A stretch of DNA of 64,000 nucleotides from Flavobacteriales bacterium (GTDB lineage: Bacteria; Bacteroidota; Bacteroidia; Palsa-965), in assembly GCA_040377305.1 (NCBI GenBank), contig JBEIPA010000014.1, forward strand, positions 64,001-128,000, read 5' to 3'. The notes under the pieces were generated by a model. That model did not search any database. It saw nothing but the letters and a program-made list of their open reading frames with translations, and was not told the DNA's origin. The position numbers were made by a program, and so were the translations under genes. Numbering within the stretch: position 1 is the first letter of the stretch; each line of letters begins with the position of its first letter. This document shows, in pieces, positions 22,482 to 35,336 of this stretch.

Positions 22482-23885
22482 TTACCCATCCATTCGCACG
22501 ATACGCGGACTGAACTTTCCTACGATGTCGACTAAATCAACTTGCGCCTCCATCACCTGAAAAATGTCTTTGTACGCATGTGGCGATTCATCCAGACCAC
22601 CACCGATTAACGTCACGTTATTTTCTTTCAGCACAGATTTCATCTCTGCATTCGTTACGTTTTTCATTGCTGCTGTACGCGACATTTTACGTCCCGCTCC
22701 ATGAGAAGCAGAGTTGATGGAAATGCTCGCACCTTTTCCGCGTACAATGAATCCCGGTGCAGTCATCGATCCCGGAATAATTCCGAGAACGCCTTTGCCG
22801 GCAGGTGTTGCACCTTTACGATGCACGATTACATCTTTGCCGTTGAATTTTTCTTTCCATGCAAAGTTGTGGTGGTTTTCTACCATCGCGATGGGTTCAA
22901 CACCAAGCGCAGCTGCAATCTTCTCGTGAATTTTGTGATGACACGCCGAAGCATAATCACCAGCGAGATTCATTGCAAGCCAATACTCTTGTCCTTCCTG
23001 AGTTGAAAGATCAAGCCACGCAAGATGTTTTGCTTCCTGCGGCAAACGACATTTCTCCATTGCCACTTTCGTGTAATGGTTCGCAATCGTTGCGCCAAGT
23101 CCGCGCGAACCGGAATGCGACAACAACGCGAGGTATCGACCTAATGGAAGATTGAACTCGTTGTTCTCATCGCTGATATCAACAACTCCGAATTCCACAA
23201 AGTGATTTCCCGAACCGGATGTTCCCATTTGCTTCACTGCTTTCAGCTGCAGACCTTTCAGCAATGGAATTTCATCGAACAACTTTCGGTCAGTCACTTC
23301 AAACTCTTTGTTCTCCTTGAACTCTTGTCCTGAACCAAAGAGTGTATTATCCGTAAGCACTTTGTAAAGTCCGCGCGAGTCGGTGTCGATGATCTCGTGC
23401 GGAGTCGGAAAAATACTCAGGCACATTCGGCAACCGATGTCGACGCCAACTCCATAAGGAATAATTGCGTTTTCCGTAGCGAGTACACCACCGATCGGCA
23501 ATCCATAACCCTGATGCGCATCCGGCATCAAAGCACCGGCAACTGCAACCGGCAAACGAATTGCCACATCCATTTGTTTACGCGCACCATCTTCGATCTG
23601 ATCTCCACCGTAAATTGCGTAAGATCCTTGTTCGATGCGCAATGCAATTTCGGGACCTTCCGCTTCTTTCGGCTTTTCCGTCAACGCATCCGCAATCGCA
23701 GCGAGGTTCGTGTCGTCGAGATAATCCGCAGGTGCAGCAAGAATATTTTTCAGCATCTCCATCACATCTTCACGTGATGATTTGCGGTAATACTTTTCAA
23801 TGATGTTGAGGGCAATTCCCACAACGCGTCCTTGTTTGTATCCAAGTTCGCGAAGGTGATCTCCGGTGATGTTTAATTTGTTCAT
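22482..23885 (-). CDS. rtcB: RtcB RNA ligase (copy 1)
   Basis: MPDAH.GYGLPIGG, VGVDIGC, GNHFVE, HSGSRG, HNFA, HRKGAT, SHGAGR. Confidence 0.95.
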   Translation of the reverse strand: MNKLNITGDHLRELGYKQGRVVGIALNIIEKYYRKSSREDVMEMLKNILAAPADYLDDTNLAAIADALTEKPKEAEGPEIALRIEQGSYAIYGGDQIEDGARKQMDVAIRLPVAVAGALMPDAHQGYGLPIGGVLATENAIIPYGVGVDIGCRMCLSIFPTPHEIIDTDSRGLYKVLTDNTLFGSGQEFKENKEFEVTDRKLFDEIPLLKGLQLKAVKQMGTSGSGNHFVEFGVVDISDENNEFNLPLGRYLALLSHSGSRGLGATIANHYTKVAMEKCRLPQEAKHLAWLDLSTQEGQEYWLAMNLAGDYASACHHKIHEKIAAALGVEPIAMVENHHNFAWKEKFNGKDVIVHRKGATPAGKGVLGIIPGSMTAPGFIVRGKGASISINSASHGAGRKMSRTAAMKNVTNAEMKSVLKENNVTLIGGGLDESPHAYKDIFQVMEAQVDLVDIVGKFSPRIVRMDG

Positions 23886-24514
23886 TTTACTAATTGTATT
23901 TCTTGTGTAACATAAATTCGAGGTTGTTCAACTTTATTTGTTGACTCGAATTTCATAGCGATGATTTCTTCGCAAGCGCGAGTAATGTGCACAACCATTT
24001 CATCGACATTAATATTTAATATCCCGTCTGCACGAAGAATTGTACCTCCACCTTGCGCATGTGAAAACCTGAGTTTGCCCTTTGGGGCAAAACAGTGAAC
24101 TAAGCCGCATCGCATTTCATCATATAGATCAAATGTTCCATTGGATTCTGCTTTTAAATACGCTCGATAATCCTTAAGAGATGCGAGATTCCGAATGGAG
24201 CGCTCAAAGTCCTCACGAACAGTGCCCGATTTATCCCAAACTGTTGGGGAATTTTCATTTATACACTTTCCGAAGAATTCAATTGCCGAACTCATGCAAA
24301 TTGCCCCGAGCCATGGCGATACTTTAACCACAGCTTGCATTTCGTCAATAAGTACAGTCCGCATAAATTGCTTAGTTGGAATGGGCATCTGCACAACAAA
24401 ATGTGATTTATCATCAGTAAAGCCAAAGACAACATTTTTCATTTGTTCATCCGTGAAAAGGTGCTTTCGTTGAAACTCTTGAAGGATCGATTGAACTGAT
24501 ATTTCTTTCATCAT
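23882..24514 (-). CDS. Putative HEPN-domain protein
   Basis: Helical ORF with AIEFFG and RCGLVH (Rx4H); 4-nt overlap with the rtcB start. Confidence 0.55.
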   Translation of the reverse strand: MMKEISVQSILQEFQRKHLFTDEQMKNVVFGFTDDKSHFVVQMPIPTKQFMRTVLIDEMQAVVKVSPWLGAICMSSAIEFFGKCINENSPTVWDKSGTVREDFERSIRNLASLKDYRAYLKAESNGTFDLYDEMRCGLVHCFAPKGKLRFSHAQGGGTILRADGILNINVDEMVVHITRACEEIIAMKFESTNKVEQPRIYVTQEIQLVK

Positions 24515-24552
24515 GATTATTCTATACTAATCAATTTACAAAATTTGTTTTG

Positions 24553-24623
24553 ACGACCGACAGGGATTCGAACCCCGATCCTCAGATTCGTATTCTGAGA
24601 TTCTTCCGTTGAACTATCGATCG
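24553..24623 (-). tRNA. tRNA-Arg(ACG), atypical
   Basis: CGATCGA/TCGGTCG acceptor, TCAGA-ATACGAA-TCTGA anticodon arm, GGTTCGAATCC. Confidence 0.85.
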
Positions 24624-24656
24624 AAATACAGTGTCGGGATACGATCCCGACACCTC

Positions 24657-24788
24657 ACAGGCAAAAAGCGAAAAGAGACTGTTTGCATTGCTCTACCACT
24701 GAGCTACACACAACTTTCGCTATGTGGCCGGATTCGAACCGGCGTCCCATGGATTGGAAGTCGAAGTAACTCTTTTCTACGGCACTGT
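24657..24788 (-). ncRNA. Y RNA (YrlA-like) with circularly permuted tRNA domain (Y1)
   Basis: 5' GTGCCGTA-GAAAAGAG-TTACTTC stem closed by CTCTTTTC; T arm precedes a GAAA-capped acceptor stem and a D arm (TAGCTCAGTGGTAGAGC); downstream of the TROVE gene. Confidence 0.85.
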
Positions 24789-24794
24789 TCATTG

Positions 24795-24868
24795 GGTGTT
24801 AGATCGGTTTCGATCCGATTACCTCTTGCTTCACAAGCAAGCGCTCTCCCGAGTGAGCTACAAACACC
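24795..24868 (-). tRNA. tRNA-His(GTG)
   Basis: G-1:C73, CTTGC-TTGTGAA-GCAAG arm, unusual T loop ATCGAAA. Confidence 0.85.
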
Positions 24869-24873
24869 GTGTT

Positions 24874-24957
24874 CAGTAGGCAGTTTGGCAGTAGTGCAGT
24901 TGGCAGTCAAAATATAATTCTCTGACTGCCTACTGCCCAACTGCTTACTGCCTACTG
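24874..24957. repeat. CAGTAGG/CAGTTGG heptamer hairpin spacer
   Basis: Tandem cagtNgg units followed by their reverse complement. Confidence 0.8.
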
Positions 24958-24963
24958 TTCTTG

Positions 24964-25037
24964 TACTCTGTGTGGGATTCGAACCCACGTGATCTGGTCG
25001 AAAACCAGATATACTAGACCAACTATATGAACAGAGC
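24964..25037 (-). tRNA. tRNA-Glu(TTC)
   Basis: GCTCTGT/ACAGAGT acceptor, TCTGG-TTTTCGA-CCAGA arm, GTGGG-TTCGAAT-CCCAC. Confidence 0.88.
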
Positions 25038-25122
25038 CTGATTGATTTGCGGATGACGCGCCGGGTTCTCTCCTTTGGAGAGTTAGAGAGGCGCGGCGCG
25101 TAATCCGCAAATCAATCTTCAG

Positions 25123-25196
25123 TCGCGACAGCAGGATTCGAACCTACATCTTCTCCAGTCCAAGTGGAGAGGCTTAGCCAATTAGCCGACCTCGCG
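25123..25196 (-). tRNA. tRNA-Pro(TGG)
   Basis: C1-G72, A73, CTCCA-CTTGGAC-TGGAG arm; one acceptor mismatch. Confidence 0.82.
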
Positions 25197-25285
25197 ATGT
25201 TGATTAGCTGATTTTTAATTTCTGATTTCTGATGCTGAAAGGTGTTACCCCAAGAGCTAATCAAAAATCAGCTAATCCTATTTAT

Positions 25286-25390
25286 TGTGAGGAAAAAATC
25301 ACAGAAAAGACGAAAGCGCCATCTTTCGATGTCAGGATTCGAACCTGTTTCTTCCTGCCACGAAGTATCTCTTCTGTTACGTCACTCACA
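25286..25390 (-). ncRNA. Y-like RNA Y2 (T arm + short capped stem)
   Basis: GTGACGTA-ACAGAAGAG-ATACTTC stem; CAGG-TTCGAAT-CCTG; CATC-GAAA-GATG. Confidence 0.7.
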
Positions 25391-25421
25391 AACTCAAAGA
25401 ACAAATTCAATTTCAAAATAA

Positions 25422-25510
25422 GCGGGCAAAAGTCAATCAGAGTCTGCCGGGATTTGAACCCGCGTCTTTCGACTTTCTACCAAAGAAGTATCTCTGATTT
25501 ACGGCACCGT
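25422..25510 (-). ncRNA. Y-like RNA Y3 (T arm only)
   Basis: GTGCCGTA-AATCAGAG-ATACTTC paired with CTCTGATT; CGGG-TTCAAAT-CCCG. Confidence 0.7.
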
Positions 25511-25523
25511 TTACTTTTAACTA

Positions 25524-26051
25524 TTATCTCGTCGGGATCTTCAATCCCATTTTCTTCATCGCAAGCAATGCTTCTGCATTTCCGATTGCGTCGTTGACCG
25601 GGTTGTGATCATGACGCGTTTTGCGAAACAATCGCTTCCACTCGCTGTTCAGTCCTCCATCCATTTTCATTCCACAATACAGATCACCGATTCGTCTGCC
25701 TGAAAATCCAAACGGATTTTTTCCCAGGTAGAAATGGAAGTAATAATTAATCCACTGCCAATCGAACGCGAGGTTATCGCTGATGAATATTGCTTTGCCG
25801 TCGGATGTTGCGTTCAACCATTCGGAGAAACGTTTCATCACTTCGGCGGGCTCCTCGAACGACTCGTGTTGCCCGCGTGTGAAACCACTTACTGCAAGTG
25901 CATCCGGAATCCATTCTTTGGAAATTGGTTGCGTCTTTCCGTAGAATGTTTTCGCGAGTGTGGGTTCTATCACCACTGCACCGAAGCAAACCATCGAATA
26001 TTTATTTGGGATGGGCCCATCGGCCTCTACATCCACTACTATGTAACTCAT
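25524..26051 (-). CDS. DEDDh 3'-5' exo(ribo)nuclease
   Basis: VDVEADG (ExoI), DNLAFD (ExoII), HNPVNDA (ExoIII). Confidence 0.85.
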   Translation of the reverse strand: MSYIVVDVEADGPIPNKYSMVCFGAVVIEPTLAKTFYGKTQPISKEWIPDALAVSGFTRGQHESFEEPAEVMKRFSEWLNATSDGKAIFISDNLAFDWQWINYYFHFYLGKNPFGFSGRRIGDLYCGMKMDGGLNSEWKRLFRKTRHDHNPVNDAIGNAEALLAMKKMGLKIPTR

Positions 26052-26083
26052 TTTGTTTTTGTTTTTAATCAATTTAATAATTT

Positions 26084-26156
26084 AAGCTGGCAACAAACTC
26101 GCAGAGGTTTTGGTCTAATTAACAGTTAGAAGTAACTCTGCAATACGGCACAGCTT
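26084..26156 (-). ncRNA. Y-like RNA Y4 (minimal, anticodon stem-loop cargo)
   Basis: GTGCCGTA-TTGCAGAG-TTACTTC stem with CTCTGCGA; TCTAA-CTGTTAA-TTAGA hairpin. Confidence 0.7.
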
Positions 26157-26214
26157 GCCGATGTGCCGATTTCCAATATGCCAATATGCCGATTGGAAAT
26201 ACCTCAATAAAATT

Positions 26215-26332
26215 CGGAAGCAAAAAACGATTCGGGTGGGGCGTCGCAATGAGGATTTGCACCTCTTCCTGGTTTTTACATCAGGACCCTTGCCCCCTGT
26301 CGAGCGAAGTATCCCGGCTCTACGGCATTCCG
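26215..26332 (-). ncRNA. Y-like RNA Y5
   Basis: ATGCCGTA-GAGCCGGG-ATACTTC, terminal CGGAA/TTCCG pairing, GAGG-TGCAAAT-CCTC T-loop-like hairpin. Confidence 0.62.
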
Positions 26333-26335
26333 TTT

Positions 26336-26421
26336 CAGTAGGCCGTTTGGCAGGCGTTCAGTAGGCAGTCAAAATTTATTCCTAATGACTGCCGACTGCA
26401 CTACCGCACTACTGCCTACTG
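26336..26421. repeat. CAGTAGG heptamer hairpin spacer
   Basis: Same family as 24874-24957. Confidence 0.75.
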
Positions 26422-26427
26422 ATTAAA

Positions 26428-26645
26428 CAACGGTAACTGGCAACAAGTCTGCTTTCTGCTTTCACAGAATACGGCCGTCCTATTTCTGTATTGCTACAGA
26501 CAGTTGACTGGTAATCATCATCCGCATGGTGTCAGGATCTGAAATCCTGATACTGCGCACTCAGATTAACGTTCGCGAACCACAGTTACCCGTGCATCAC
26601 TACCTTAGGACCGTTATCGAAGTATGACCCGTTTACGACACGTTG
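26428..26645 (-). ncRNA. Y-like RNA Y6 with 23S rRNA H69/H70-like cargo
   Basis: CAACG/CGTTG ends, GTGTCGTA-AACGGGTC-ATACTTC paired with GACTTGTT; cargo contains ATAACGGTCCTAAGGTAG and CGGCCGTA. Confidence 0.65.
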
Positions 26646-26766
26646 TGTGATGTCAGGATCCTATCCTGACAGTGCACATAATTTTTTCAAAGAACGTTTG
26701 TACTAACCAAGCCGTCGGGCGACCTCTCCTTCAGTGCAATTTCCGAAGGAGAGGCGTAGCCGTAAA

Positions 26767-28281
26767 CTACAACTCGAGTTGTTTTATCATCGCGATTGCA
26801 TCTGTACCGTTTTCTGCAGCATACAATACGTCGAACACTTTATCTGACCAGCCCGCGATGAGTGTTACATCGTCGCGCTGCACACTGATTGGTGTGTTAC
26901 CGTAACCTGCGAGGTCGAACAAGTACAGTTTCGCCATTGGCGCAATCTGTTTGTATTCTTTCCACGCCGTCTGCAACGAATCACCGTCAGCTTTGGTATT
27001 CCACATCTGGCAGTCAGTGAACATCATCACTTTGTCCATCACAACATTGCGCTGAACAAGATCTTTGATCACCAGGTAACCATTTGTGGCGTAACCAACT
27101 TCACCTTCCCGCTTGTAGTACTCATCAACATTCGCAAGTACTCCACGGTTAGGCATGTTGATTACCTTCCAGCGATCTCCGAACATTCCGGAAACCACTC
27201 GTTCACACTTGCTCTGCATCAGCATACCCAGTACCAGACCGATATCGAACAAATACACTTTGCTCTTCGCCGAGATTGGTTTCTGCATTGAACCCGAAAC
27301 GTCACACGCAATCAACACACGTGTTTTGTAATCGAATCCGCTGATGTTTTTCGCTGAAGCTACAATTGCATCTTCCAGCGCGTTAAGTATCATCGACACG
27401 TAATCAGCTTTCAGCACTTTCACTTCACGGTATGCAGACAGGAAACGGAATGGCAACTGCTTCGATTTCGCAACCTGGTTTGCATCAGAAAGCGTATCAC
27501 ACACTTTTTTGATTGCATCCCATGATACACCCGCTTCAATCATGTTACGGATGTTACGCAACATCGCCATGTATCCCAGCTTACCGCTGAAGATCAGTTC
27601 TTCCCATTTCGCACGAACCGCAAGCTCTTTTGCTTTTGCATCAGCGAATTTTTGCTGACCCAAAGCAGAAAGTTCAGTTTCCCAGGTATAAGCAACAGAC
27701 AGCTCTTTCGCAGCGATCTTGTTGAAGACTGCTTGCTGTTCATCACTTTTCGCTTTCGGGTGAACAAGGAACAATGCATCACGCAACGTTACTGCCGCTT
27801 CACGGTTGTATTTCGAGAACTGGTATTCATCAAAACGATTGAACGCCTTTGCGAGTCCTTTCTGTACCTGTTTCGAAAGCTTGTTCAGTTTCTTAGTTCC
27901 CGAACGGTTGTTCGCCAGTTGGTAGTAAGCCAGAAGCTCAGTGATCTCATCAGCACGCTGAACGACACCGTTCACCGCTTTGGATACAACTATATTTCCG
28001 GAGTTACGTTTTGCAAGTTCGACTGCAAGCACCTGTGGAATAGAACGCATGTACATTTTGTTACGTGCATACACCGCAAGCTTCGCCACGAATTCAGCAT
28101 CTGTCTTCTCCATGAGATCCACGATACGTTGAAGACGCTCGTTTCCTTTCTCATAGAACGAATCGCTCAGTCCTGCGGTTACTACCGCTGAATACAGTTC
28201 GAGCTCAGGAGTCATTGCGAATGCTTTTGCGCCTTCGTAATTAGTGACTGCTGTTTTACGTTTGAAGATGTTGAATTTCAT
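26767..28281 (-). CDS. rsr: Ro60/Rsr TROVE-domain RNA-binding protein with vWA domain
   Basis: NYEGAKAF, FDEYQFSKY, YTWETELS, LGYMAMLRN, QLPFRF, DVSGSM MIDAS, FTDCQ. Confidence 0.93.
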   Translation of the reverse strand: MKFNIFKRKTAVTNYEGAKAFAMTPELELYSAVVTAGLSDSFYEKGNERLQRIVDLMEKTDAEFVAKLAVYARNKMYMRSIPQVLAVELAKRNSGNIVVSKAVNGVVQRADEITELLAYYQLANNRSGTKKLNKLSKQVQKGLAKAFNRFDEYQFSKYNREAAVTLRDALFLVHPKAKSDEQQAVFNKIAAKELSVAYTWETELSALGQQKFADAKAKELAVRAKWEELIFSGKLGYMAMLRNIRNMIEAGVSWDAIKKVCDTLSDANQVAKSKQLPFRFLSAYREVKVLKADYVSMILNALEDAIVASAKNISGFDYKTRVLIACDVSGSMQKPISAKSKVYLFDIGLVLGMLMQSKCERVVSGMFGDRWKVINMPNRGVLANVDEYYKREGEVGYATNGYLVIKDLVQRNVVMDKVMMFTDCQMWNTKADGDSLQTAWKEYKQIAPMAKLYLFDLAGYGNTPISVQRDDVTLIAGWSDKVFDVLYAAENGTDAIAMIKQLEL

Positions 28282-28348: not shown

Positions 28349-28434
28349 TTCGATTTATTTTAACTTTTTGTTTTAATCGCCTGATTTTCAGTTGGCATTA
28401 ATTCGTTTTTTCAATCGCAACATTTATTGCGGCG

Positions 28435-28507
28435 TTGGAAAGGAAGGGCTCGAACCTTCGACCTTGTGCGTATAAGGCACGTGCTCTTACCACTGAGCTA
28501 CTCTCCA
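28435..28507 (-). tRNA. tRNA-Ile(TAT)
   Basis: TGGAGAG/CTTTCCA acceptor, GTGC-CTTATAC-GCAC arm, canonical D and T arms. Confidence 0.82.
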
Positions 28508-28514
28508 AGTCTTG

Positions 28515-28586
28515 CGGCGCGGATTGGACTTGAACCAATATAATCTCCCTTAACAGGGGAGAGCTCTACCATTGAGCTACCAGGCC
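28515..28586 (-). tRNA. tRNA-Asn(GTT)
   Basis: CTCCC-CTGTTAA-GGGAG arm, G73; one acceptor mismatch. Confidence 0.85.
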
Positions 28587-28591
28587 ATTTG

Positions 28592-28664
28592 CGGTAACGA
28601 TGGGATTCGAACCCACAACTTTCCGATAGACAATCGGACGCTCTAGCCGTTGAACTACGCTACC
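28592..28664 (-). tRNA. tRNA-Asp(GTC)
   Basis: GGTAGCG/CGTTACC, TCCGA-TTGTCTA-TCGGA arm, G73. Confidence 0.87.
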
Positions 28665-28669
28665 ATTTG

Positions 28670-28742
28670 TGGACAAGGAAGGAATTGAACCTTCATCTTC
28701 TGATCTTCAGTCAGCCGCATTCACCGCGTTTGCTACCTGTCC
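28670..28742 (-). tRNA. tRNA-Phe(GAA)
   Basis: GGACAGG/CTTGTCC, CTGA-CTGAAGA-TCAG arm. Confidence 0.85.
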
Positions 28743-28748
28743 GTTTTG

Positions 28749-28822
28749 TTGACCCACCAGGGCTCGAACCTGGAACCCCCACTTTAAAAGAGCGGTGCAT
28801 CTAACCATTGAGCTATGGATCA
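28749..28822 (-). tRNA. tRNA-Lys(TTT)
   Basis: TGATCCA/TGGGTCA, CCGCT-CTTTTAA-AGTGG arm. Confidence 0.85.
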
Positions 28823-28835
28823 ATATTTCTTCGCT

Positions 28836-28891
28836 TGTCCTCCTTCGGCAAAGCCTGTGCTGAGCGAAGTCGAAGTGCTCAGTCTGACAAG
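28836..28891. repeat. REP-like element (CTGAGCGAAGTCGAAG family)
   Basis: ctgagcgaagtcgaag core; inverted relative cttcgactacgctcag at about 28988-29003. Confidence 0.6.
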
Positions 28892-28894
28892 TCG

Positions 28895-28965
28895 TTGTCG
28901 GAAATGGATTTGAACCACTATAGCCAGATTCAAACTCTGGTGTCCTACCATTAGACGATCCGACA
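28895..28965 (-). tRNA. tRNA-Gln(TTG)
   Basis: TGTCGGA/TCCGACA, CCAGA-GTTTGAA-TCTGG arm. Confidence 0.87.
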
Positions 28966-29545: not shown

Positions 29546-30574
29546 ATGCCGATAAACAAACTCGCACTCATCCGCTACAAGACAATTGATAACTGTCTGC
29601 AGAACCGTTTCCGCAAATGGACACTTGACGATCTAGTGGATGCATGCTCGCGTACACTGGAAGAGTTCGAAGGAATTACACAAGGAGTAAGCAAGCGTAC
29701 TGTTCAGCTCGATATTCAGACGATGCGCAGTGAAAAGCTAGGATACAATGCTCCTATTGTGGTCAGCGACAAGAAGTATTATTCGTACGAAGACAAGAAT
29801 TACAGCATCACGAATATTCCGTTGACGAGTCAGGATTTAGGAACGCTCACGGAAGTTGTAGATATTCTACGCCAGTTTAAAGGGTTCGGTTACTTCGAAG
29901 AGCTCAGCACAATGGTGAACAAGCTCGAGGACAAAGTGCAGTCTCAGAAGAACAAAGGTCGCTCGTATATACACTTTGAGAAAAATGATTTGCTAAAAGG
30001 TCTCGAGTACATCGAATCATTGCACAAGGCGATCATTCGTCAGAAAACGATTGACGTATTATATCAGTCGTTCAAAGCACGTGAAGCGACAAGCATCATT
30101 TTTCATCCTTATCTGCTCAAGGAATACCGCAACCGCTGGTTTGTGATCGGCTCAACGCAAAAGAAAACAATTCTTACTCTGGCACTGGATAGAATTTTTT
30201 CTGTGAAAGAAGTCGGTGGAGAGAAATACATCAAGAATACCTTCTTTGATGTTGACTCGTACTTTGATGATACGATTGGCGTTACGAAGAATCTCGGGAT
30301 TCGACCACAATTGGTCGTGATGAAAATTGATCGTACGAATGCGCCATACGTAATCACAAAACCGATTCACCACACGCAGAAGATTCTGAAGACAGAACCC
30401 GACGGAATGATTTTCAGTATTAACGTGACGTGGAATTTTGAGTTGGAAAGAGAAATCCTTGGGTTTGGTGAACAGATAAAGGTGTTATCGCCAAAGAGAT
30501 TGCAGAATAAGATTAGCTGGAGGGTGAAGAGGATGGTGGAGAGGTATGAGGAACTTCAACCAAATGAACGATGA
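29546..30574 (+). CDS. wHTH-WYL-WCX transcriptional regulator
   Basis: N-terminal HTH (VSKRTVQLDIQTMR), HPYLLKEYRNRWFV and LALDRI WYL motifs, VLSPKRL tail. Confidence 0.92.
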   Translation: MPINKLALIRYKTIDNCLQNRFRKWTLDDLVDACSRTLEEFEGITQGVSKRTVQLDIQTMRSEKLGYNAPIVVSDKKYYSYEDKNYSITNIPLTSQDLGTLTEVVDILRQFKGFGYFEELSTMVNKLEDKVQSQKNKGRSYIHFEKNDLLKGLEYIESLHKAIIRQKTIDVLYQSFKAREATSIIFHPYLLKEYRNRWFVIGSTQKKTILTLALDRIFSVKEVGGEKYIKNTFFDVDSYFDDTIGVTKNLGIRPQLVVMKIDRTNAPYVITKPIHHTQKILKTEPDGMIFSINVTWNFELEREILGFGEQIKVLSPKRLQNKISWRVKRMVERYEELQPNER

Positions 30575-31659
30575 GCGGCAAAGTAAATTCATTTCACGAA
30601 GCAGTTCGAACGAGACCTGGCATGTATATTGGCAGATTGGGTCCCGCTGGTTTCGGTTATCTTGTCAGCGAACTGATTAGAGATTTTGCTGCTGACCTGC
30701 AAGCAAAAGAAGCGCATGTGAGGATCGACATAAAAGGGAAGGTCACAATTAAATTTCCCGAAATAAATTGCACTCAGGCTGACCTTTATACTTTAATAAA
30801 AAATGGTCGGATGAGTCGCAGTTCTTCATTTTGGAGGACATCACTTGCCATTATCCCGCCGTTATCAAAAGCGACCACGCTCAAAATCGGAAGCACTAAG
30901 TATACTGTCAGCCGCAACGCTAAACTTAATCCTCACTTCGAGTCCGATACCGCTAAAGCTATTTCACGATTTGAAATAACCTTTCAACCGGATGCAGGTA
31001 TTCTCAAAGCCAAAGCGCCTGAAATACTTACTTTATGTGCTCGCTTGCATGAGCTCACGGTGGTTTGTCCCGGATTAAAAATCACTTACCGTGATGACAA
31101 TACAAAACCATTTACGCAAATGGTCTGGCATACTCCTGAAGGAATACGCACACTATTGGCGCCGGCACGAAATATGTTTTATGAAAAGAAATTAGAAGGA
31201 GGTTTTTCCTTTAACGAAAAAGGACTACGCGGTGAGGTGTACTGGTTATGTGCAAACGGGGGATGTGATCCTATCTATTCATTTGCTAACGGTGAACGTA
31301 CTGTGAAAGGCGGATCGCATGTGAAAGGATGCGTACAAGGTATACTGGACGCGTTGAAGGATTTAGTCAAAGGAAATGGCGAGAAATATGACTTCAGTGT
31401 GTCTCGTGCAATCCGACATCAATGTCTCGTAGTTTCCGTTTGGGGAAACGGCCTAAGCTATGCGGGCAGTACAAAAGAATGTCTGGAACATAAACCTACA
31501 AACCAAATTCTCCGCAAACTTGTTGGTGCGCACATGGAGCAGCTGTGTGCGTCGAATCCAAAGGATGCTATACAACTTACGTATCGGTTGCAGAAATGGA
31601 ATCTTGCGGAGATGTATCCTGAATTGTATTCCGGAAAATCAAGGAAAAAGAAGAAGTAA
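30571..31659 (+). CDS. Stand-alone degenerate GyrB/ParE N-terminal (GHKL + transducer)-like protein
   Basis: EAVRTRPGMYIG, SFANGERTVKGGSHVKG, YAGSTKECL; no TOPRIM domain. Confidence 0.75.
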   Translation: MSGKVNSFHEAVRTRPGMYIGRLGPAGFGYLVSELIRDFAADLQAKEAHVRIDIKGKVTIKFPEINCTQADLYTLIKNGRMSRSSSFWRTSLAIIPPLSKATTLKIGSTKYTVSRNAKLNPHFESDTAKAISRFEITFQPDAGILKAKAPEILTLCARLHELTVVCPGLKITYRDDNTKPFTQMVWHTPEGIRTLLAPARNMFYEKKLEGGFSFNEKGLRGEVYWLCANGGCDPIYSFANGERTVKGGSHVKGCVQGILDALKDLVKGNGEKYDFSVSRAIRHQCLVVSVWGNGLSYAGSTKECLEHKPTNQILRKLVGAHMEQLCASNPKDAIQLTYRLQKWNLAEMYPELYSGKSRKKKK

Positions 31660-33506: not shown

Positions 33507-34205
33507 ATGGCTATTTCAAGAAAATACGGCCGTACATACCATTATCCATTTTCTCCCGGAACTACAAGCGATGATCGCATCAGCCACGACTACTGGAATG
33601 ATGTGACAAAAATTGCTTCGCTGATTCACACGGAAAAACTGGACGGTGAAAACAATTGCCTTAATCGTTATGGTGTTTTTGCGCGTTCGCATGCGGCCCC
33701 ATCGCAATCGCCGTGGACGGCATGGTTGCGTGAACGTTGGGAGTTACTGAAACATGATCTCGGTGATCTGGAAATATTCGGCGAGAATCTTTACGCAATA
33801 CATTCAATCGAATACGCGAAGCTGGAAAATCATTATTATGTTTTCGGTGTGCGGCGCGAAGATCATTGGTTGTCGTGGGAGGAAACTAAGTTCTATGCGA
33901 GTATGCTGGACTTTCCGACTGTACCTGAGATTCAACTTATTTCGACACCCATCGACCGGAAAGTATTCGAAGCCGATGTGCTTTCGATTGTTTCGCAGGA
34001 AAGTAAAATGGGAAGCCTCGATGCTTTCACCGGCAAAGTCTGCACGATGGAAGGAATTGTAACCCGCAACACCGGCGAATATGCCGTAACTGATTTCGCG
34101 CATCATGTTTTCAAATACGTGCGAAAAAGTCACGTGAAAACAGATGCACACTGGACACGTAACTGGAGAAGATCAAAACTGATCTGGGAACGAGCCGGCG
34201 ACTAA
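33507..34205 (+). CDS. ATP-dependent RNA ligase family protein
   Basis: KYGRTYHYPFSPG..DD, motif I TEKLDGEN, FGEN, EGIVTR, FKYV. Confidence 0.88.
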   Translation: MAISRKYGRTYHYPFSPGTTSDDRISHDYWNDVTKIASLIHTEKLDGENNCLNRYGVFARSHAAPSQSPWTAWLRERWELLKHDLGDLEIFGENLYAIHSIEYAKLENHYYVFGVRREDHWLSWEETKFYASMLDFPTVPEIQLISTPIDRKVFEADVLSIVSQESKMGSLDAFTGKVCTMEGIVTRNTGEYAVTDFAHHVFKYVRKSHVKTDAHWTRNWRRSKLIWERAGD

Positions 34206-34223
34206 CTAACAATTTCAAAATGA

Positions 34224-35336
34224 ATGTTTATGTGGACAATTTCGGATATAAAGCAATGGCAAACGCTCTACGACAAGTTCGACTGGGTGCGCGATATGCG
34301 TGGCGTTCCCCAGGATCGCGTGCATCATGCAGAAGGTGATGTGGAAGTACATACGCGCATGGTACTTGATGCGTTGGAAAATCTTCCAGACTATCAGCAA
34401 CTGAATGAACAGGACAGAGAAATTCTTTGGGCTTCTGCTTTGCTGCACGATGTAGAAAAACGATCAACTACTATTCACAATGAAGACGGACGTATATCTT
34501 CTCCCAATCACGCAAAAAAGGGTGCAGCTACAACGCGCAGTTTGTTGTACCGCAACATTCCCGCACCGTTTCATATTCGCGAAGCTGTGGTGAAGCTCGT
34601 GCGTTATCACGGCTTACCGCTGTGGGTATTCCATAAACCTGATCCGGCAAAAGCGCTAATTGCGGCAAGTCTTTCCGTGAATACGCATCACCTTAGTCTG
34701 CTCGCTGAAGCAGATGTGCTTGGAAGAGAATGCGCGGATCGTAATGAACTTCTTTATCGTGTGGAAATGTTTCGGGAACTATGCAAAGAACAGCTCGCGT
34801 ATGGAAAAGCAAAATCCTTTCCATCTGAACTCAGCAAGATGAACTATTTCCGGAAAGAAGACGGTTCGCCGGACTATGAACCATTCGACGTTACGCAATG
34901 TGAAGTAGTTTTACTTTCAGGTTTGCCGGGATCAGGAAAAGACAATTATCTGCGGAAATATCTGAAAGAGTGGCCGGTGGTAAGCATCGATGACATTCGA
35001 AAGAAAAATAAAATCTCCCCGACGGATAAAAAAGGAAATGGCCAGGCGATACAGATGGCGAAGGAACAGGCGCGAGTATACCTGCGAAGCAAAACTTCAT
35101 TCGTGTGGAATGCAACGAACATCACGCGATCTATGCGAGGGCAGTTGATTGATCTGTTTCTCACTTACAAAGCGAAAGTGAAGATCGTGTACGTAGAGGT
35201 TCCTTACGCCACATTGCGTAGACAAAACCGCGAACGTGAACACGTGGTTCCGGCAGCTGCATTGGAGAAATTAATCGATAAGCTGGAGGTTCCAACGCCG
35301 GACGAAGCGCATGAGATCATATATGAAATAAAATAG
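34224..35336 (+). CDS. HD-domain phosphohydrolase + P-loop (polynucleotide kinase-like) protein
   Basis: HHAEGDV..HT, ALLHDVEK, GLPGSGK Walker A, WNATN. Confidence 0.87.
   Translation: MFMWTISDIKQWQTLYDKFDWVRDMRGVPQDRVHHAEGDVEVHTRMVLDALENLPDYQQLNEQDREILWASALLHDVEKRSTTIHNEDGRISSPNHAKKGAATTRSLLYRNIPAPFHIREAVVKLVRYHGLPLWVFHKPDPAKALIAASLSVNTHHLSLLAEADVLGRECADRNELLYRVEMFRELCKEQLAYGKAKSFPSELSKMNYFRKEDGSPDYEPFDVTQCEVVLLSGLPGSGKDNYLRKYLKEWPVVSIDDIRKKNKISPTDKKGNGQAIQMAKEQARVYLRSKTSFVWNATNITRSMRGQLIDLFLTYKAKVKIVYVEVPYATLRRQNREREHVVPAAALEKLIDKLEVPTPDEAHEIIYEIK

Follow-up and report, generated by a model that had tools for sequence, protein, structure and literature searches.

A panel of six predicted Y RNAs with different tRNA-like and rRNA-like cargoes beside a Ro60 gene of a Flavobacteriales bacterium

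Results

In this study, we analyzed a stretch of 64,000 nucleotides (nt) from a Flavobacteriales bacterium (assembly GCA_040377305.1, contig JBEIPA010000014.1, positions 64,001 to 128,000), hereafter called the window, in which a gene for Ro60 (Rsr) is followed by six predicted Y RNAs. The Ro60 gene (26767..28281, minus strand) encodes 504 amino acids (aa) with a TROVE domain (Pfam, E 2e-30) and a von Willebrand factor A (vWA) domain (vWA_Ro60, E 3e-5) whose metal ion-dependent adhesion site (MIDAS) reads DVSGSM at residue 327, and its product matches the phage Ro60 structures 9L5Y/9KOP at E 1e-29. The six Y units, Y6 to Y1 in the direction of transcription, lie on the same strand at 24657-26646, 0.1–2.1 kb downstream of the TROVE gene and thus inside the distance of 4 kb from Ro60 expected of bacterial Y RNAs. 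An initial annotation had described six units here that share one Ro60-type stem and carry different cargoes. All six heads were recovered at that place on the minus strand (starting at 26641, 26328, 26151, 25507, 25385 and 24785). Each unit is closed by a complementary strand and by an outer stem rich in pyrimidines, and the four stem pairs that had been quoted are exact.

The head pattern has eight matches in the 5,175,023-base genome, six of which are in this cluster, and the chance of six heads within 2 kb is ~5e-24 with the other two genomic matches as background. The 5′ and 3′ ends of the units pair into a long stem with a bulged conserved helix, as expected of bacterial Y RNAs. The inner stem of Y5 has a 2 × 2 internal loop, with 6 of 8 positions paired, and in this genome Y1 and Y5 have short outer stems. 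When Y1, Y3 and Y6 were folded without constraints, parts of their cargoes were mispaired, and the structures reported here were therefore derived by comparison.

The comparison used the best 80 of 318 confirmed Ro60 relatives, nearly all titled Bacteroidota, which together with the window stretch gave 81 sequences. Among these the head occurred 275 times on the Ro60 strand versus 3 times on the opposite strand, with 174 distinct inner stems. Inner pairing was fully Watson-Crick for 56 of the 275 heads with their own partner, compared to 15 of 1361 swapped stems. Pairing between head position 4 and the tail holds in 186 of 195 units (CG 117, UA 52, UG 11, AU 6), the 195 being those with a settable outer register among the 220 distinct units that pass the inner-stem filter. 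The conservation of this pairing with varied bases indicates that selection acts on both strands of the conserved helix.

A looser head combined with a required double closure identified 322 units on the Ro60 strand and one on the opposite strand, with 0–12 units per related locus (median of 4). This stricter filter recovers only four of the six window units, as repeat elements adjoin Y1 and Y5 and leave their outer stems short, and the unit counts are therefore lower bounds. The class counts, which include four window units, comprise 104 YrlA-like units in 63 loci, 69 short-hairpin units in 48 loci, 62 T-arm-only units in 47 loci, 44 Y5-type units in 44 loci and eight units of a 23S ribosomal RNA (rRNA) type in eight loci; a further 35 units in 23 loci fall outside these named classes. 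In close relatives the order of the panel is conserved, with the 23S mimic first, then the Y5 type, the hairpin and T forms and the YrlA type. Multi-RNA panels are general among related Bacteroidota Ro60 loci. The initial annotation had named decayed duplicates without covariation as the alternative to guard against; we looked for this and found instead that the stems and their different conserved cargoes covary in relatives, which argues that the six units are not decayed duplicates. In the search with YrlA and Y RNA models suggested there, Y1 gave a sub-threshold match to the YrlA family and no family was matched by Y2–Y6, for which Rfam 15 at E <= 10 returned only chance-level microRNA and small nucleolar RNA matches. 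Hundreds of units score under the Rfam cut-offs and go unseen in annotation.

Further cargoes outside the named classes, of up to 165 nt, are each common to few loci (L016:3355, L019:6523 and L070:6523; L007:1965 and L008:6547; L050:10146 and L051:11133). At L002:7586, L018:9332, L020:9174 and L022:6063 the cargo begins with the 3′ half of a D loop and a full anticodon arm, and is a tRNA opened at a point other than in YrlA.

The Y6 RNA (26427..26646, minus strand), previously described only as rRNA-like, could be mapped to 23S rRNA: on the shared stem it carries what comparison indicates is a circularly permuted junction of helices 67 to 71 (H67–H71), opened at the H69 loop and without loop 70. 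The identity of 18 bases described below spans about 1916–1933 in Escherichia coli numbering. The 23S genes of relatives and of E. coli served as references because the genome itself has no assembled 23S (no RF02541 match). A blastn search of E. coli (20,395 records) matched Y6 to 23S rRNA alone, weakly (E 0.7 and 9), and the 18 bases after the Y6 head are identical to the 23S of the same genus, with a chance of ~7e-6. Plain alignment beyond the core is mostly not significant, and thus the case for a relationship between Y6 and 23S rests on structure. Set against six real 23S genes, Y6 reads H69 3′ strand, H70, a short H71-like hairpin, the H70 and H67 3′ strands, a capping hairpin, the H67 5′ strand, the base of H68, a short H68 hairpin, the H69 5′ strand, a small hairpin and the Ro stem. 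On the minus strand the core lies at 26617-26597, the H71-like hairpin at 26594-26581, the H67 strands at 26570-26564 and 26516-26510, the H68 base from 26508 and the H69 5′ strand at 26479-26470. A palindromic insert of 23 nt (about 26554-26528), itself a hairpin, sits in the dispensable capping hairpin. A 23S gene or pseudogene was rejected as an identity for Y6 because only about 20 nt align and the order is permuted.

In the seven copies of the Y6 type, 96.5% of cells are paired, versus 32–52% in slid controls, and seven pairs are changed on both sides in the seven sequences (0 of 500 shuffles), figures to be read with the structures having been derived from the very sequences tested and with kin inflating the controls. 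A second type of 23S mimic, in Chryseobacterium-like loci, has 10 copies with 96.7% pairing and 18 pairs changed on both sides, including two in H67 and the 1836-1904 pair, which is beyond all 500 shuffles. Several of its copies keep the whole H69 loop, this type being opened in the H69 5′ strand as Y1 is in the anticodon stem. The triplet 1835-37/1903-05 is GCC/GGC in all six 23S genes, while in the mimics (17 parsed of 19) it is GUC/GAC in seven, GCU/AGC in seven and GUU/AAC in three. The UUCCU of loop 70 is present in none of the 23S-mimic copies shown. In published work, this loop is the site at which MazF-mt3 and MazF-mt6 cut 23S rRNA (PMC5408214).

The 23S-core pattern behind an ACUUC head was also found in 44 metagenome and nine viral stretches, some from other lineages, although many of these 53 matches are duplicates, at least two are true rRNA and several look unrelated; eight Bacteroidota-type copies were aligned. 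A Ro60 gene was seen within 2.5 kb in 7 of the 53. Another lineage of RNAs with the 23S core has a different head (L097, L104, L106, L107, L114 and L131; also L103, L117, L122 and L128), and RNAs of this kind are present on the viral-collection contigs L143, L146 and L148 as well.

The Y5 RNA (26215..26332, minus strand) has on the shared stem a GGGG, a purine linker, a hairpin, a T-loop arm (UGCAAAU), a linker and CCCC, along with a crossing pairing of 2–3 base pairs (bp). The earlier list of cargoes holds for Y5, as for the other units, and needed additions in three: this crossing pairing, the anticodon loop of Y1 and the UGG and GNRA hairpin of Y3. The Y5 class has two subtypes with one plan, namely a short 5′ strand, GGGG, a purine-rich linker, a hairpin, a T-loop arm, a linker and CCCC. 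Each locus has one copy of either subtype or none (44 of 80), never two, and it is usually first in the panel. In 32 of 35 copies of the class, the first two cargo bases form Watson-Crick pairs with the linker that follows the T arm, compared to 19.9 with swaps (0 of 3000), and because this pairing crosses GGGG/CCCC the class forms a pseudoknot. In the window's own subtype 20 of 28 pairs are changed on both sides, beyond all 500 shuffles.

The sister subtype aligns to all 126 positions of Rfam RF01053, the model of the Deinococcus Y RNA Yrn1, with 32.9 bits and E 1.6e-4 in a 181-base stretch (gathering 80); the L061 copy gives 21.4 bits, and scores of the subtype range from 21 to 33 bits. In 11 loci scanned whole, RF01053 matches only Y5-class copies, three of five of the sister subtype and none of three of the window's subtype. 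A full-length model places Y5 first by only 3.4 bits. The order of Y5 follows the plan of Yrn1, with a purine-rich GGG..GGAA stretch, a hairpin, a T arm, a linker and CCC, and its T loop is without a U55 equivalent. Judged from sequence, it is likely that Yrn1-like RNAs exist in Bacteroidota. Mimicry by Y5 of RNase P RNA, transfer-messenger RNA (tmRNA), 16S, 23S or 5S rRNA or a riboswitch was rejected, as none gave a significant match.

The Y4 RNA (26084..26156, minus strand) carries a single anticodon stem-loop at 26129-26115, the loop of which is identical to that of tRNA-Asn(GUU). Of the 60 distinct cargoes that are short hairpins, 28 carry a loop of anticodon type, versus 1.7 in shuffles, and in 24 the loop is exactly that of a real tRNA encoded in this genome, versus 1.8 shuffled (maximum of 7). 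Those 24 loops are of Asp (10), Lys (6), Tyr (2), Asn (2), Ser (2), Leu (1) and Trp (1), the Asp count being inflated by kinship.

The remaining units are predicted to present the tRNA elbow. Y1 (24657..24788, minus strand), a YrlA-like permuted tRNA, runs through anticodon loop, variable region, T arm, closed acceptor stem and D arm, and is the only unit seen by Rfam (RF02553, 39.8 bits, E 5e-6, below the gathering score of 69); YrlA-like copies of relatives score 21–54 bits. It begins with two pairs that close a 7-nt loop equal to the genome's tRNA-Gly(UCC) loop. The anticodon loop is kept in 25 of 77 related Y1-class copies with a clear D arm, and in 10 of these 25 the three bases that follow are fully paired to the three behind the D arm (1.7 with swapped partners; 0 of 5000). 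The anticodon stem is split between the 5′ and 3′ pieces, which indicates that the Ro stem was grafted into its 5′ strand. Y2 (25285..25391) and Y3 (25419..25513), both on the minus strand, have UGG near the start and a T arm, and both types recur at other loci. In Y2 the T arm is joined by a short closed acceptor-like hairpin, for which the evidence is an alignment without pair counts. In Y3, a minimal elbow, a D-loop-like UGG and a GNRA hairpin stand ahead of the T arm, and in its type 17 of 22 pairs, among them the three pairs of the GNRA hairpin, are changed on both sides (0 of 500 shuffles).

The Y units are interleaved with other genes on the minus strand, the order of transcription being six tRNAs, Ro60, Y6, Y5, Y4, an exonuclease gene, Y3, Y2, three tRNAs, Y1, tRNA-Arg, a 210-aa open reading frame (ORF) and RtcB. 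The six tRNA genes upstream of Ro60 (Gln, Lys, Phe, Asp, Asn, Ile-UAU) are at 28434..28965. The exonuclease gene between Y4 and Y3 (25524..26051) encodes an Rv2179c-like 3′-5′ exoribonuclease (PF16473, E 1e-6) and has counterparts in 3 of the 80 related loci. Spare copies of tRNA-Pro(UGG), tRNA-Glu(UUC) and tRNA-His(GUG) lie between Y2 and Y1 (24794..25196), and one of tRNA-Arg(ACG) at 24552..24623. Each island tRNA has another genomic copy with the sole exception of tRNA-Ile(UAU) (28434-28507). The RtcB RNA ligase gene (22482..23885, PF01139, E 3e-81) is found in 41 of the 80 related loci and in 24 of the 43 having full flanks. The ORF directly before it (23882..24514) has no Pfam match and is in none of the 80 related loci; its atlas neighbors are unnamed Bacteroidota clusters (0.95), the nearest named ones, Rv1289 and DUF4145, at less than 0.8 being only a lead.

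On the plus strand, a divergent gene for a WYL-WCX regulator (29546..30574) has counterparts in 51 of the 80 related loci and in 29 of the 43 having full flanks. Directly after it is a short GyrB-like protein of 362 aa (30571-31659; 0 of 80 related loci). The same island has genes for an ATP-type RNA ligase and for an HD and AAA_33 (kinase-like) protein (33507..35336, plus strand), each in 6 of the 80 related loci. A polynucleotide phosphorylase (PNPase) gene is present in the genome. Promoter and terminator scans gave no excess over shuffled sequence (13 versus 10.7 and 8 versus 7.3).

Several repeats lie among the RNA genes. Mutually related palindromes of ~23–25 nt occur at 24631-24653, where one truncates the Y1 outer stem, at 26528-26554 within the Y6 cap hairpin and at 26650-26674, preceding Y6; with six genomic matches by a strict pattern, they look like a small mobile repeat. 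Long imperfect hairpins built of short tandem units lie between RNA genes at 24872-24955 and 26337-26420, with 13–29 similar genomic copies at 2–4 mismatches and chance microRNA matches in Rfam. A long, apparently perfect hairpin without a Y head is located between tRNA-Pro and tRNA-Glu (25032-25120).

Discussion

We consider it highly probable that the window encodes six real RNAs bound by Ro60. We also favor, with less assurance, a role in which each cargo displays a different surface of tRNA or 23S rRNA and so tethers or blocks a different RNA-acting protein under stress. As with known Y RNAs, transcription would be induced by stress together with the island, the WYL regulator being the likely switch, and the RNAs may be processed from a polycistronic precursor shared with the tRNAs. 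Ro60 would then bind and stabilize each RNA via the shared stem, giving one ribonucleoprotein (RNP) per unit. Y5 may act as a Yrn1-like tether to PNPase for the decay of damaged structured RNA, Y1, Y2 and Y3 could present the elbow to elbow-binding factors, and Y4, together with the loop kept in Y1, might compete for anticodon nucleases. Y6 would present the H67–H71 junction of the 50S subunit and bind a nuclease or a ribosome rescue or splitting factor. Because it has neither the toxin-cleaved loop 70 nor an intact H69 loop, we propose that Y6 is a non-cleavable stand-in for the subunit interface and not a sacrificial substrate. In this way one Ro60 can probably be aimed at damage of several kinds in the translation machinery.

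A bolder reading, which we put forward only tentatively and as a whole, is that Ro60 of Bacteroidota serves as a programmable platform equipped with a library of mimics of the translation machinery. Within it, a toxin-proof mimic of the 50S H67–H71 junction would bring Ro60 to, or titrate, factors that cut, split or rescue ribosomes, real anticodon loops would be bait for nucleases, and a third class would be the long-missing Yrn1 orthologue, the Ro stem always being grafted at the tRNA anticodon arm or at rRNA helix 69.

A number of our results weigh against cargo-specific partners. The heads read G-N-C-G-U-A, which differs from the published GNCGAAN0-1G at one position (U for the first A, in the same place), and the shuffle controls are inflated throughout by kin sequences. 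When Y6 was aligned plainly to 23S beyond the 18–20 nt core, 42 of 200 shuffles equaled the window copy, and 2 of 10 copies tested reached 4 of 200 shuffles or better. Y6 is also accessory, being found in 7 of 80 loci and in 3 of 26 other genomes of the genus, plus one genome of another genus, as opposed to 9 of the 26 for Ro60 (the unpublished genome G012 contributes to the Ro60 count alone). Orthologues of the Y1 class differ freely in their anticodons, which fits mimicry of shape and not a specific nuclease target. The window's Y5 gave no match to RF01053, and both a cargo-only hidden Markov model (HMM) and a covariance model of the sister subtype missed it and all eight further Y5-type copies tried. 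The link of Y5 itself to Yrn1 therefore rests on architecture, position and mutual exclusion, which makes Y5 Yrn1-like in plan and only a putative member of that family. In addition, an unpublished remark in PMC4201824 has deletion of the Yrn1 T arm leaving complex assembly unchanged.

Three other explanations were considered. All six RNAs might be bound by Ro60 with cargoes that are mere stable caps or gates, that is, compact borrowed folds that shield the RNA from nucleases and adjust entry to the Ro60 cavity, without a specific partner. Such a role has some precedent, as protection from nucleases has been offered as one function of the tRNA module and Rsr is gated by Y RNA (PMC4201824), and it would suit panels that vary so widely in size and make-up (0–12 units, with Y6 missing from most loci). 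It appears unlikely, however, as single-stranded sequence is kept beyond what stability needs (the 18-nt identity to 23S, the real anticodon loops and the T loops), and the Y5 and Y6 classes stay single-copy, in an order conserved in close relatives. We regard as somewhat less likely still the possibility that the RNAs act mainly as decoys in free form, sponging up anticodon nucleases and rRNA toxins as antitoxins do, and that Ro60 just stabilizes them. It draws on 20 of the 24 exact loops being those of Asp, Lys, Tyr and Asn tRNAs, which are the targets of colicin E5 and PrrC, on the spare tRNAs and two RNA ligases of the island and on competitive inhibition of an anticodon nuclease having been proposed for YrlA. 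Yet the loop-70 site that toxins cut is exactly what Y6 is without, Y2, Y3 and Y5 have no anticodon loop, and the excess of Asp may be inheritance among kin.

The last alternative, that only Y1 (perhaps Y5) is functional and the others are recent duplicates or captured scraps of tRNA and rRNA in decay, is very improbable. Palindromic repeats do shorten the Y1 and Y5 outer stems, one lies inside Y6, and one H67 pair is mismatched in four of the seven Y6 copies. Against this, compensatory changes are present in every class counted, the Y6 insert is in a dispensable part, the classes recur across many genera, and covariation already largely refutes decay. Cargo-specific partners for six Ro60-bound RNAs remain our preferred explanation.

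The role of bacterial Y RNAs outside Deinococcus is a long-standing question. A locus with every known Y type and new ones offers the same protein and the same handle with one variable, which opens this question to direct testing. If the platform reading is true, the Ro60-PNPase machine is not a Deinococcus oddity, and a small RNA mimicking an rRNA junction would link Ro60 to ribosome damage control. Ro60 RNPs of gut Bacteroides have been implicated in lupus cross-reactivity (PMC11277228), and hence the RNA content of those RNPs matters there too.

In the general scheme Ro60 binds the terminal stem of a Y RNA, the far end of which binds an effector (PMC4201824, 10.1101/312249, PMC7790460, PMC12135203), and Yrn1 tethers Rsr to PNPase. 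Y1 resembles YrlA (RF02553) in its T arm, closed acceptor stem, D arm and long terminal stem and in its proximity to Ro60 and RtcB. It differs in that it keeps an anticodon loop, which Salmonella YrlA is described as lacking (Wang et al. 2018, bioRxiv 10.1101/312249), and the Ro helix is conserved here in both strands, which covary, whereas the helix is recognizable only in the 5′ strand of Salmonella and Mycobacterium YrlA (PMC4201824). The long-hairpin loops of YrlB and Yrn2 are published as small and pyrimidine-rich, in contrast to the real anticodon loop in 24 of the 60 distinct hairpins here. Y6 shares with 23S domain IV the 18 identical bases, the H69 stem, the lone C-G pair with a UAA triloop, the H70 pairs, an H71-like hairpin, H67 and the base of H68, but it is permuted in order and 170 nt long, with H69 opened onto the Y stem, H67 capped, H68 shortened and loop 70 absent.

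The initial annotation had also held that the described loci have two RNAs, which does not stand. Table S1 of Chen et al. 2014 (PMC4201824) gives 2–4 YrlA per locus, Bacteroidetes included, with three in Chryseobacterium indologenes, three in Mucilaginibacter paludis and four in Neisseria elongata, and rsr of Deinococcus is adjoined by five ncRNAs (Yrn1, Yrn2 and RNAs a, b and d; PMC4201824). A locus with many RNAs is therefore not in itself new. In its multi-RNA cluster and tRNA beside Ro60 the rsr locus of Deinococcus radiodurans is similar to ours, with T arms in its RNAs a and b; the T loop of RNA a is said to be without a U55 equivalent, a likeness to Y5 by description. No rRNA-like member is described there in the available text, unlike Y6 here, and a BLAST search with Yrn1 reported in 2014 gave no orthologues. 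An rRNA-mimic cargo, anticodon-loop hairpins and Yrn1-like RNAs outside Deinococcus were not found in the literature searched, which excluded some key reviews and figure supplements. The rsr-yrlBA-rtcBA repair operon (Hughes et al. 2020, PMC7790460) likewise brings Ro60, Y RNAs and RtcB together; the island here differs from it in having a divergent WYL regulator, not RtcR, and six Y-type RNAs that alternate with tRNAs and a gene for an exonuclease. As an array of spare tRNAs, the island is comparable to the Anabaena trn operon (PMC10272220), which is associated with translational stress. The locus is conserved and richer than the Y RNA loci described to date, and for at least one of its cargo types no published counterpart was found.

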